This document shows, piece after piece, positions 28,534-30,791 of a stretch of 64,000 nucleotides of DNA. Source of the stretch: Armatimonadota bacterium (GTDB lineage: Bacteria > Armatimonadota > Fimbriimonadia > Fimbriimonadales > GBS-DC); the NCBI GenBank assembly GCA_037445735.1, contig JBBIJY010000005.1:32001-96000 (forward strand). Direction: 5' to 3'. The notes beneath the pieces are model-generated. The model was not told where the DNA came from, ran no database searches, and was given only the letters and a program-made list of their open reading frames with translations. Position numbers and translations under genes: made by a program. Every line of letters begins with the position of its first letter. The first letter of the stretch is position 1.

Positions 28534-28546
<13 letters not shown>

Positions 28547-29163
28547 TCGGGCAGTGTCGCCCGCTCCTGCTCGCTCAGGTGGAGCTGCACTTCGGCGTCC
28601 GCCAGCTGAATCACCGTGTGTTCGTTGCTGTTGCGCAGCTCCTCTATAATCGCGTCGATCTTTTCGGGGGTGAGCTGTCGGCAGTAGATGTCGCCCACCT
28701 GCATCACGGGCGCGTCACCACAGTTGTTGAGGCATTCCACTTCGGTCAGCGTGAACAGCCCATCGGGTGTGGTCTCGCCCAGCTGGATGCCGAGCTTCTG
28801 CTGCAGATATTCCAGGATTCGGTACGCGCCGCACAGCATGCAGCTCAGGTTGGTGCAGACCTCCAGCATATATTTGCCGACGGGCTGCTTGTTATACATC
28901 GTGTAGAAGGTGGCGACGCCTTCCACTTCGGCGCAGGAGCGTCCGAGCCGATAGGCGACTTCGGCAATCGCTTCAGGTGGCAGGTAGCCGCCGTACTCGC
29001 GCTGGGCAATCCAGAGGGCGGGCAACATCGCCGACTTGCGGTCAGGGTAGTGCTGGAGGATCAGCTCCAGCTCACGGACGGCGCGTTCGGAGAATCGCAG
29101 GGTCAGCTCCTGCGGGCGTGGTGGGCGCAGTTGCGCCGAGAGCCGAATCGGTTGCTGTTCCAT
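28534..29163 (-). CDS. nuoE: NADH-quinone oxidoreductase subunit E
   Basis: VATFYTMY, CTNLSC, ECLNNC 2Fe-2S cysteines. Confidence 0.9.
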
Positions 29164-29190
29164 CGCTGGAATTGTACCTGATAGGGAGAT

Positions 29191-29515
29191 AAAAAAGAGC
29201 CCGAGCGAATCGGTCTGCCCTTTTCGGTTCCGCCTGGCTTGCTGCCGTCCTGCGGACTCGGTGCCCCGACCGACATTGCTGCCGATCCTGAGGCGCCGCC
29301 ACTCCACGAGTGAGCAGCAGGCTTCGGGCGGTTCCTATCCGCCGTTCACGCGCGCCCAACACTGGGGCGCGGGCTGCGCGTGTTGCTCCCCGCACGGTCT
29401 CTCCATCGGCTGCCCGTCGCCGGCGCAACGGGCGTCGATGGCTCCGAGCAAGGCTCCCGACGGCAGGGACACCTGCCTTCGCTCGGGCGACGGTCATCGA
29501 GTTTCCCCGATAACC
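29191..29515 (-). ncRNA. Candidate large structured non-coding RNA of unrecognised family (~325 nt)
   Basis: Consensus promoter upstream, multiple hairpins with G-U pairs and GNRA loops on the minus strand, 11-bp 5'/3' closing helix, terminal U6. Confidence 0.7.
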
Positions 29516-29521
29516 ATCCCT

Positions 29522-29551
29522 ATTATACCACACCGATGACGGCTTTGTCAA
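29522..29551 (-). promoter_or_regulatory. Sigma70 promoter TTGACA-N18-TATAAT with extended -10 TG
   Basis: Minus strand reads TTGACA aagccgtcatcggtgtgg TATAAT. Confidence 0.85.
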
Positions 29552-29668
29552 GGGGTCGAGGGGGAATCGGGGGGTTTTCGAGGGCGAATCGGGGGAAATT
29601 TCGGGCAAAATCGGGAGTTTCGGCGCTCGAAGCCGTCGCGCAGGTGCGCGTGGGGTACACTCTGGGGG

Positions 29669-30190
29669 ATGGCGGAGGCGAGTCAACCCGTGCGGCGGGC
29701 AATCTACCCTGGCAGCTTCGACCCGCCCACGATGGGGCATCTGGATATTATCACGCGGGCAGCGCGACTGTTCGACGAACTCATCGTCGCGGTCGCCATC
29801 AACAGCGACAAAAAGCCCCTCTTCAGCCTGCAGGAGCGGGTCGCCATGCTGGAGGAGTGCTGCAGGCAGCTGCCGAATGTGCGCGTGATGCCGCTGGAAG
29901 GTCTGCTGGCACGCTTCGCGCAGCAGGCAGGCGCATGCGCCATCGTGCGCGGGCTGCGAGCCGTATCCGACTTCGAATACGAGTTCCAGATGGCGACCAT
30001 GAACCGCCAGCTGGCGCCCGAAGTGGACACCTGCTTCCTCATGACGCATCAACAGTACGCCTTTCTGTCGTCGTCCATCGTGAAGGAGGTGGCGCGGCTC
30101 GGCGGCGATGTGAGCCAGCTGGTGCCCCCCAATGTGCAGACCCGCCTGCAACAAAAATTTGCTCCACCATCGGCAGGAGACGGTCACTGA
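29669..30190 (+). CDS. coaD: Phosphopantetheine adenylyltransferase
   Basis: YPGSFDPPTMGH, RGLRAVSDFEYE, SSSIVKE. Confidence 0.97.
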   Translation: MAEASQPVRRAIYPGSFDPPTMGHLDIITRAARLFDELIVAVAINSDKKPLFSLQERVAMLEECCRQLPNVRVMPLEGLLARFAQQAGACAIVRGLRAVSDFEYEFQMATMNRQLAPEVDTCFLMTHQQYAFLSSSIVKEVARLGGDVSQLVPPNVQTRLQQKFAPPSAGDGH

Positions 30191-30239
30191 ACCGCGAATC
30201 AACCATTTAACCCTGGCGCAAGCGACGGAGGATCGGGCG

Positions 30240-30791
30240 ATGATTAACACGGATGTCATAACTATCAGGCGATGGCTGCGTGAGCTGGATCAGATGCTGG
30301 AGAACAGTCGCAGTTTCGGACCCATCGTGTTCGGCTTGAACAAAGGCGAATGCCTGAACCTGGTCCAGCAGATTCTGGCGAATCTGCCGTCGGATCTGGA
30401 CAAGGCGGAGCGGGTGCTGCGCGAGTCGGATCGGCTGGTGGGCGGTGCGCAGGCGGAGGCGCGCATGACCCTCGAACAGGCGCGGGAGGAAGCCCAGCGG
30501 ATTATCGAGCAGGCGCGACAGCAGGCGGAGGCGATTCTGGAACGCGCCCGCGCCGAGCAGGAGCGCATGCTGGCGCAGACTGAAGTCTACCAGCTGGCAG
30601 AGGCGCAGGCGCGCGAAATCGTGGAGACCGCCCGCCAGAAGGCACAGCAGATTCGACAGGGCGCCGATGAGTACGCCTATGAGGTGCTGACCCAGCTGGA
30701 GGGCGCACTCGCCAAAGTGATGAGCACCGTGCAGAACGGTAAGGCGCTCCTGGAAGACCATCTCAAGCAGCGCGTGGGCGCACGCCGCTGA
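30240..30791 (+). CDS. Coiled-coil DivIVA/ATP synthase b-like protein of the type found after coaD
   Basis: Heptad A-x3-A repeats, GADEYA motif, position after coaD. Confidence 0.7.
   Translation: MINTDVITIRRWLRELDQMLENSRSFGPIVFGLNKGECLNLVQQILANLPSDLDKAERVLRESDRLVGGAQAEARMTLEQAREEAQRIIEQARQQAEAILERARAEQERMLAQTEVYQLAEAQAREIVETARQKAQQIRQGADEYAYEVLTQLEGALAKVMSTVQNGKALLEDHLKQRVGARR

Follow-up and report, generated by a model that had tools for sequence, protein, structure and literature searches.

In this study, we describe a locus in the genome of an Armatimonadota bacterium of the order Fimbriimonadales (assembly GCA_037445735.1) that we propose to encode, as an independent gene present once per genome, a non-coding RNA of about 325 nucleotides (nt) that represents a new class confined to one family of hot-spring Fimbriimonadales. 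The locus lies on the minus strand, between nuoE and coaD, in a 64,000-nt stretch of contig JBBIJY010000005.1 (positions 32,001 to 96,000), hereafter called the window, whose numbering is used throughout. We give this reading a probability of roughly 0.78. As judged from sequence analysis, the locus combines what is generally expected of a stand-alone gene for a structured RNA, namely its own promoter, a covarying structure, strand specificity and no conserved open reading frame (ORF). A first-pass annotation of the same DNA had proposed a multi-domain RNA here that stands on its own and whose class would be new or very divergent; the promoter, the covarying structure, the lack of an Rfam match and the variable gene context presented below all speak for this proposal.

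A consensus promoter and a predicted transcript

The minus-strand promoter TTGACA-N18-TGnTATAAT, of the sigma-70 type with an extended -10 element, has 12 of 12 consensus bases, so that the earlier claim of a dedicated consensus promoter holds in all its elements (Table 1). It is the sole promoter-like site in the 1.8 kb between 28500 and 30300, a region for which shuffled sequences give a mean of 0.3 sites. Among 51 full-length homologues, TTGACA and the 18-nt spacer are found in all 51, TATAAT in 42 and GTGN directly before the -10 element in 47; these homologues were extracted with a promoter pattern, which biases the promoter counts, and copies cut by a contig end as well as chance hits were left out. 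Phased repeats adjoin the -35 hexamer upstream in the window (Table 1), and related repeats of the AAATTCCCCC type precede the RNA promoter in homologues from other genera. Tandem Repeats Finder called nothing in the repeats at 29556-29613. They are possibly an UP-like or curvature element.

A near-identical promoter, spacer included (CCCCTTGACAAAGCCGTCATCGATGTGNTATAAT), recurs elsewhere in the genome of the window, in front of a tRNA-tRNA-tuf cluster and of two ORFs whose products start with a signal-peptide-like segment (L004, G000:C32:1-1837; L002, C20:41225-41261; L003, C27:10692-10731; L005, C20:49293-49322), and TTTCGAACA stands before it in L002-L004. These positions mark the promoter of the RNA as the strong housekeeping type of this lineage. 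From this promoter strength, the RNA is probably abundant. We also note that the conservation of a spacer between otherwise unrelated promoters is unusual.

The predicted transcript would open with a GAAA-tetraloop hairpin (GGUUAUCGGG-GAAA-CUCGAUGACC, 29515-29492), which begins where transcription is expected to start, 6-8 nt past the -10 element. An 11-bp long-range helix, P1, would then bring the two ends of the RNA together just before a U-rich tract. The first-pass annotation had noted the hairpin, the helix and the U tract, and all three are present; the hairpin and the helix are kept with compensatory changes among the 51 homologues, every one of which has at least five T in the 10 nt following P1. 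A terminator scanner found no classical short-loop terminator between 28500 and 30300, where P1 with its U tract is the only terminator-like element.

A covarying, multi-branched secondary structure

The structural analysis rests on an alignment (A3) of 51 distinct full-length sequences of 308-338 nt, which are 54-97% identical to the window copy and occupy 363 columns. The RNAalifold consensus counted on this alignment has 101 pairs in 18 helices. A standard pair is formed in 91.2% of the cells, compared with a mean of 84.4% in 500 shuffles and with 36-41% when the partners are slid by 1-3 columns. Changes on both sides were counted for 62 of the 101 pairs; the shuffles have a mean of 35.4, with none of the 500 reaching 62, and sliding the 3′ partners leaves 16-29. 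Judged from this alignment, the RNA product is constrained both in its secondary structure and in many of its junction and loop nucleotides.

The consensus is built of the 5′ hairpin, P1 (possibly extended by P2 and P3), a central long-range helix and two junction domains (Table 1). The first-pass annotation had listed a series of hairpins enclosed by P1. All of them exist in the sequence and four sets are kept with compensatory changes, GCCCGUUGC/GCGACGGGC, CACUC/GAGUG, GAUCGGCA-GCAA-UGUCGGUC and GUCC/GGAC, but the three others, GGCAGG/CCUGCC, CGCGCCC/GGGCGCG and GGCGG/CCGCC, are not conserved: 54.6% of their cells pair in the 51 homologues against 56.4% in shuffles. Their bases form long-range consensus pairs instead, for example 29463-29458 with 29344-29339. 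The CCU at 29466-29464 has two competing candidate partners, the AGG of AUAGGAAC or the 3′ AGGG, and the bases concerned hardly vary. An all-against-all covariation analysis (G-test with average product correction) was dominated by clade effects and gave no trustworthy pseudoknot.

Strand specificity, as claimed in the first-pass annotation, is supported in two ways. First, the minus strand folds at -189.4 kcal/mol (z -5.98, with none of 100 shuffles as good), compared with -159.8 kcal/mol (z -2.64) for the plus strand. Second, in the hairpin GGAUCGG-N-GGCAAC-N-UCGGU, the U:G and G:U wobbles that flank the C:G and G:C pairs are invariant in 51/51 sequences. On the opposite strand these conserved wobbles, like many others in the RNA, would become A-C mismatches, which fixes the coding strand.

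Distribution in one family of the Fimbriimonadales

By BLASTN, the genome of the window holds one full-length copy, all remaining matches being to the promoter part only, and the homologues in relatives are 68-98% identical. A covariance model (R1) covering 223 positions in the middle of the RNA found one copy per genome in 24 of the 28 other genomes of the same family (f1); it had no match among 122 genomes from the order's four other families, nor among 150 further genomes of the phylum. A pattern of conserved motifs, applied to all 228 genomes of the order, gave a similar picture (24/28 in the family, 0/199 outside it, in the four sister families), and the reversed control pattern had no match in the same 228 genomes. 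Taken together, the model and the pattern place the RNA in 25 of the 28 genomes; the three without a match are 94%, 87% and 85% complete. Along with the doubly changed pairs counted above, this occurrence bears out the homology and covariation that the first-pass annotation had led one to expect.

A stricter pattern was run on one genome per species, across 185,579 species, and returned 26 stretches. Among these, 24 are titled as Armatimonadota or Fimbriimonadales metagenome-assembled genomes (MAGs), many with hot-spring strain labels. The two others (a Proteobacteria MAG and a Victivallis MAG) are coding-like DNA with neither promoter nor terminator and do not match R1, and a match in genome G008 is likewise protein-coding-looking sequence that lacks the promoter, the terminator and the conserved motifs; we consider these three as chance matches. 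A metagenome scan added 38 further stretches, and 28 distinct metagenome sequences entered the alignment; the metagenome sequences include four truncated by contig ends (L105, L106, L107 and L111) that were not individually inspected.

Genus g2 carries a shorter variant of about 267 nt, detected only through its hairpin (21.9 bits). The 5′ GAAA hairpin and the GGAUCGG hairpin are retained in it, as are P1 with its U tract and a hairpin loop bearing GCCCCAG; these elements would thus form the core of the RNA family. Judged from these searches, the RNA gene is independent, single-copy, vertically inherited and confined to one family of the Fimbriimonadales (Armatimonadota).

In viral contigs, a looser pattern gave 46 stretches, none of which matches R1 (0/46), most being unrelated sequence with a fixed span of 85 nt. 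About 30 IMG/VR contigs (within L142-L186, e.g. L142:630-714) have in common a conserved stretch of 85 nt that begins GCCCCAGCAGCCACACGTCGCC and fits the looser pattern by accident. Most of its variation falls on every third position, so that it is probably the antisense of a conserved phage gene.

Table 1. Position of the predicted RNA, its promoter, its structural elements and the flanking genes in the window.
Feature	Position	Strand	Remarks
Phased C-tract/CGA/A+T-tract repeats	29556..29613	minus	six repeats, 10-12 bp spacing; adjoin the -35 hexamer upstream
-35 hexamer TTGACA	29551-29546	minus	promoter scan
Extended -10, TGgTATAAT	TG 29530-29529, TATAAT 29527-29522	minus	promoter scan
Predicted RNA, ~325 nt	29191..29516	minus	predicted ends: start 6-8 nt after the -10, end in the U tract
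5′-terminal GAAA-tetraloop hairpin	29490..29516	minus	at about +1; helix 1, 97.1% of cells paired, 6/11 pairs changed on both sides
P1, 5′ strand GCCCGAGCGAA	29478..29488	minus	helix 2, 100% of cells paired, 3/10 pairs double-changed, 5 invariant
Central long-range helix, 5′ strand CCGUCG	29458..29463	minus	pairs with 29339-29344; helix 5, includes columns 64:191 and 67:188
Domain A/B, three-way junction	29347..29453	minus	helices 6-11; stem A with a variable tip hairpin, stem B with the GCCCCAG loop
GCCCCAG loop	29362..29368	minus	invariant, 51/51; kept in the g2 variant
Central long-range helix, 3′ strand CGGCGG	29339..29344	minus	followed by conserved AUAGGAAC
Domain C, stem to a four-way junction	29226..29335	minus	helices 12-18; hairpins CACUC/GAGUG, GGAUCGG and GUCC/GGAC
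Most conserved hairpin GGAUCGGCAGCAAUGUCGGUC, GCAA loop	29260..29297	minus	helix 17, 95.3% of cells paired, 9 pairs double-changed
P1, 3′ strand UUCGCUCGGGC	29199..29209	minus	complementary to 29488-29478; U tract directly after
U-rich tract UCUUUUUU	29191..29198	minus	presumed intrinsic termination site after P1
nuoE	28534..29163	minus	downstream, co-directional; PF01257 179.7 bits, TIGR01958 174.4 bits; context, not part of the RNA
coaD	29669..30190	plus	upstream, divergent; TIGR01510 216.2 bits, PF01467; context, not part of the RNA

Gene context and the case for a cis-acting leader

Several points weigh against a stand-alone gene of a new class. Both the transcript with its two ends and the level at which it is made are deduced from the DNA. 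The presumed terminator would be unorthodox, being a helix that encloses about 290 nt in a region where the scanner found no classical one. The homologues come from few clades, about five at genus level, so that far fewer independent events lie behind the covariation than its counts would suggest; despite this kinship, the pairs 64:191 (CG 26, UA 21) and 67:188 (UA 23, CG 20) switch repeatedly. The proposal of a protein scaffold, discussed below, is an analogy and not a result. Finally, in 10/10 loci examined the U tract is followed, at a distance of only about 0-40 nt, by the start of a co-directional gene, an arrangement that would fit read-through control and compact genomes equally well.

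This last point leads to the main rival explanation, a cis-acting leader of the riboswitch-like or folding-gated attenuator kind, in which closure of P1 would stop transcription and failure to close would let it read through into the downstream gene. P1 and its U tract would provide the only terminator-like element for such a control, and both the size and the junction-rich architecture of the RNA resemble those of large aptamers. However, the downstream genes of the ten loci, Pfam-supported in every case, are of seven unrelated kinds (NuoE, ABC ATPase, metallo-beta-lactamase (MBL)-fold+Ada, baeRF, PilB, Uma2 and GT2) and no common ligand logic is apparent among them. The MBL-fold+Ada protein is found downstream in two genera and baeRF in two genomes of one genus. 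A linkage with MBL+Ada was considered and set aside: in the genome of the window, the MBL+Ada gene sits on another contig. On the upstream side, CoaD is encoded in the window and in two relatives, which makes 3/3 of the loci examined in genus g1, and elsewhere HPPK, HisA/F or a GGDEF protein is found. Across the 10 loci, any conservation of the gene neighbourhood stops at the level of the genus, and this change of neighbours from genus to genus speaks against a leader tied to one particular gene.

Moreover, nuoE and other downstream genes have promoter-like elements of their own. For nuoE, this is a -10-like TACAAT (29176-29171) located 7 nt before the ATG; such proximity, together with the lack of an obvious Shine-Dalgarno sequence, suggests that the nuoE mRNA is leaderless. 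No conserved antiterminator pairing was seen in the RNA, where the CCU at 29466-29464 has two competing candidate partners; its three local alternative hairpins are not conserved, and its promoter type is the one also found before the tRNA-tuf cluster. Altogether, we consider a leader unlikely.

Comparison with other classes of RNA

We then consider a base-pairing small RNA (sRNA) dependent on Hfq, whose conserved loops, such as GCCCCAG, would pair with mRNAs. The locus has features of this kind, with its own promoter, a 3′ U tail after a stem that corresponds to the usual Hfq module, and one invariant 7-nt loop, and the genome encodes Hfq (101.4 bits). Nonetheless, an RNA of 308-338 nt with about 100 conserved pairs and invariant junctions is far more elaborate than seed-type sRNAs and leaves very little conserved single-stranded sequence, so that, on its architecture, this explanation is quite improbable.

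Less probable still, and in our view only marginally credible, is the possibility that one of the known families has diverged strongly here (RNase P, transfer-messenger RNA (tmRNA), signal recognition particle (SRP) RNA, 6S, raiA, OLE/ROOL/GOLLD or Y RNA). At the gathering threshold, a search of the whole window with Rfam 15 returned two tRNAs only and nothing on the RNA. With the threshold relaxed to E<=10, the region 29000-29800 gave c-di-GMP-II-GAG at 18.7 bits (threshold 40, E 0.93) and mir-49 at 15.6 bits, with an sR42 match outside the RNA element; nine diverse homologue loci had no credible or recurrent match at the same cut-off. The earlier failure to recognise a known class in the element agrees with Rfam 15 in the window and in these nine loci. 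None of raiA, OLE, ROOL, GOLLD and HEARO, nor any other Rfam 15 family, scored near its gathering threshold.

The first-pass annotation had also failed to recognise RNase P, tmRNA or SRP signatures in the element, in agreement with the location of these RNAs elsewhere in the genome. Bacterial RNase P RNA (RF00010) does not match the element and has a full-length copy of 263.1 bits at C3:109574-109914. Likewise, tmRNA (RF00023) is on contig C26 (177.8 bits) and a large-type SRP RNA (RF00169/RF01854) on contig C21 (169.2 bits), neither having a match on the element. On the side of a known family, the copies of genus g3 contain GGGAAAGUCCCUG, which we take to resemble the P4 motif of RNase P. As for 6S RNA (RF00013), the element is multi-branched, with 18 helices, and not a rod with a central bubble; a 6S-like rod is also present elsewhere in the genome. 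This probable 6S RNA, at G000:C25:13084-13265 (L033:1501-1682, minus), scores 31.3 bits for an Rfam threshold of 46.4 and is predicted to fold into a 182-nt rod (-100.9 kcal/mol, z -5.02) with a U tract at its end.

Bacterial Y RNAs, the partners of Ro60/Rsr, are also relevant here. In common with the element, they have a U-rich 3′ end and a stem of conserved sequence that closes the two ends. A possible role as a Y RNA was considered in view of a TROVE (Ro60-like) protein of 621 aa encoded in the genome (G000:C4:47412-48296; L187:526-2391, minus), on a contig other than that of the RNA. TROVE and the RNA are neither adjacent nor co-occurring: TROVE is found in 7/28 genomes of the family compared with 25/28 for the RNA, and in 61/175 genomes of a sister family from which the RNA is missing; for this lack of co-occurrence, a Y-RNA role was rejected. 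In the order as a whole, TROVE is patchy (69/228 genomes). The element has no Y-RNA model match, no recognisable Y RNA was found by Rfam within 1.5 kb of the TROVE gene, and the known Y RNAs of bacteria are shorter than the present RNA by a factor of about 2-3.

The closest parallels are found among large RNAs of bacteria. The raiA motif RNA, which we take to be Rfam RF03072 and to belong to Bacillota and Actinomycetota, is likewise a stand-alone, many-stemmed RNA gene of several hundred nt with invariant junctions and variable flanking genes. According to a published study, raiA has six major covarying stems, two pseudoknots and no known function, and is the fourth most abundant transcript of C. 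acetobutylicum apart from rRNA and tRNA (PMC10861870). The present RNA differs from raiA in having no Rfam match at E<=10, in belonging to another phylum, in its far narrower range (one family) and in its plan, with a 5′ hairpin, a closing stem, two junction domains and no supported pseudoknot. Likewise, OLE, ROOL and GOLLD are large, heavily structured RNAs that are restricted to lineages or habitats and have functions unknown or partly known, OLE being tied to extremophiles; PMC12286853 reports that they form RNA-only homo-oligomers by cryo-electron microscopy (cryo-EM). Unlike them, the present RNA is about half their size or less, has no Rfam match and was seen in no phage or tRNA-island context. 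Finally, the smtA motif (‘Soda Lake RNA’) of Thioalkalivibrio is, as described in PMC11109978, an orphan non-coding RNA of more than 350 nt, present in one genus, with several covarying stems, and judged unlikely to be a cis-regulator. Restriction to one lineage and covariation in several stems are common to both; from that description, the smtA motif is set apart by its lineage and its tie to the smtA gene, whereas the present RNA has no conserved neighbour.

Thus, the present RNA resembles raiA, smtA and OLE/ROOL/GOLLD in gene organisation and structural constraint, and the covariance-model tests indicate that it is not raiA, OLE, ROOL or GOLLD. In the literature on RNA motifs of Armatimonadetes/Armatimonadota/Fimbriimonadales we found no description of it, with the restriction that supplementary files might list it, nor did we find one in the excerpts of PMC11109978 and PMC5737381 relevant to this question. 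By Rfam-type tests and by the literature, the predicted RNA is a new family.

The region does not code for protein. Mechanical ORFs do overlap it, including a minus-strand ORF of 395 aa (29072-30259), as is expected at a G+C content of about 65%, and 42/51 homologues have at least one stop-free frame across the element. A protein-coding region, or a structure that is a by-product of G+C-rich DNA, is nevertheless scarcely conceivable given that the ORFs covering the RNA have no Pfam match, that no reading frame is common to the 51 homologues (in nine of them every frame is interrupted, and many keep several open), that 691 of the 765 runs of alignment gaps are not multiples of three, and that the substitutions are pair-compensating and strand-specific. 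The first-pass annotation had come to the same view in seeing no credible ORF there.

Possible modes of action

For a stand-alone RNA, we can propose the following sequence of events. Transcription from the strong-type promoter would be high and largely constitutive, the terminal hairpin would protect the 5′ end of the RNA, and P1 would close before the U tract to bring about intrinsic termination. The RNA may then act in trans through its folded tertiary shape and not through long antisense pairing. Among the possible modes, we rate as most likely, tentatively and at somewhat less than even odds, that the RNA is a subunit or scaffold of a protein complex or a protein-sequestering RNA, the analogues being raiA, OLE, 6S and RNase P. 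In such a complex, the invariant junction and loop nucleotides would be the binding surface.

A natural ribozyme or an RNA-only quaternary assembly like those of OLE, ROOL and GOLLD, evolved in thermophilic Fimbriimonadales, is less likely than a role in a protein complex, and we regard it as a rather doubtful prospect. The RNA would in that case be a functional class of its own, with its active site or oligomer interface made up of the GCCCCAG loop, the conserved junctions and the wobble helix UCGG/UCGG, which has twofold symmetry.

Few large RNAs of bacteria have many conserved junctions, and those with an established function proved to be ribozymes, cores of ribonucleoproteins or unexpected RNA-only assemblies. 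RNAs of thermophiles tend to behave well in vitro. With its strong promoter, 51 natural variants, a fold backed by covariation and a thermophile source, the RNA is a usable target for chemical probing and cryo-EM; the organisms that carry it are uncultured as far as record titles show. The narrow taxonomic range limits the claim that can be made. An annotation-ready RNA family model is gained for a poorly studied phylum, and the locus suggests that a single family can own a housekeeping-style RNA.

Other observations at the homologous loci

The downstream regions of L016 and L009 carry the TACAAT-like elements GGTATAAT and GGTATCAT just upstream of the genes that follow the RNA. In two genomes of genus g3, the RNA promoter is preceded, at a distance of about 100 nt and on the same strand, by a tRNA gene (L047:1290-1363 and L080:2490-2563). 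In genus g5 (L084:5836-7038 and L067:6026-7228), the gene directly downstream of the RNA encodes a 401-aa baeRF family-10 protein with weak similarity to ribosome hibernation factors of the MSMEG_1130 type (69.8 bits, for a cut-off of 480).

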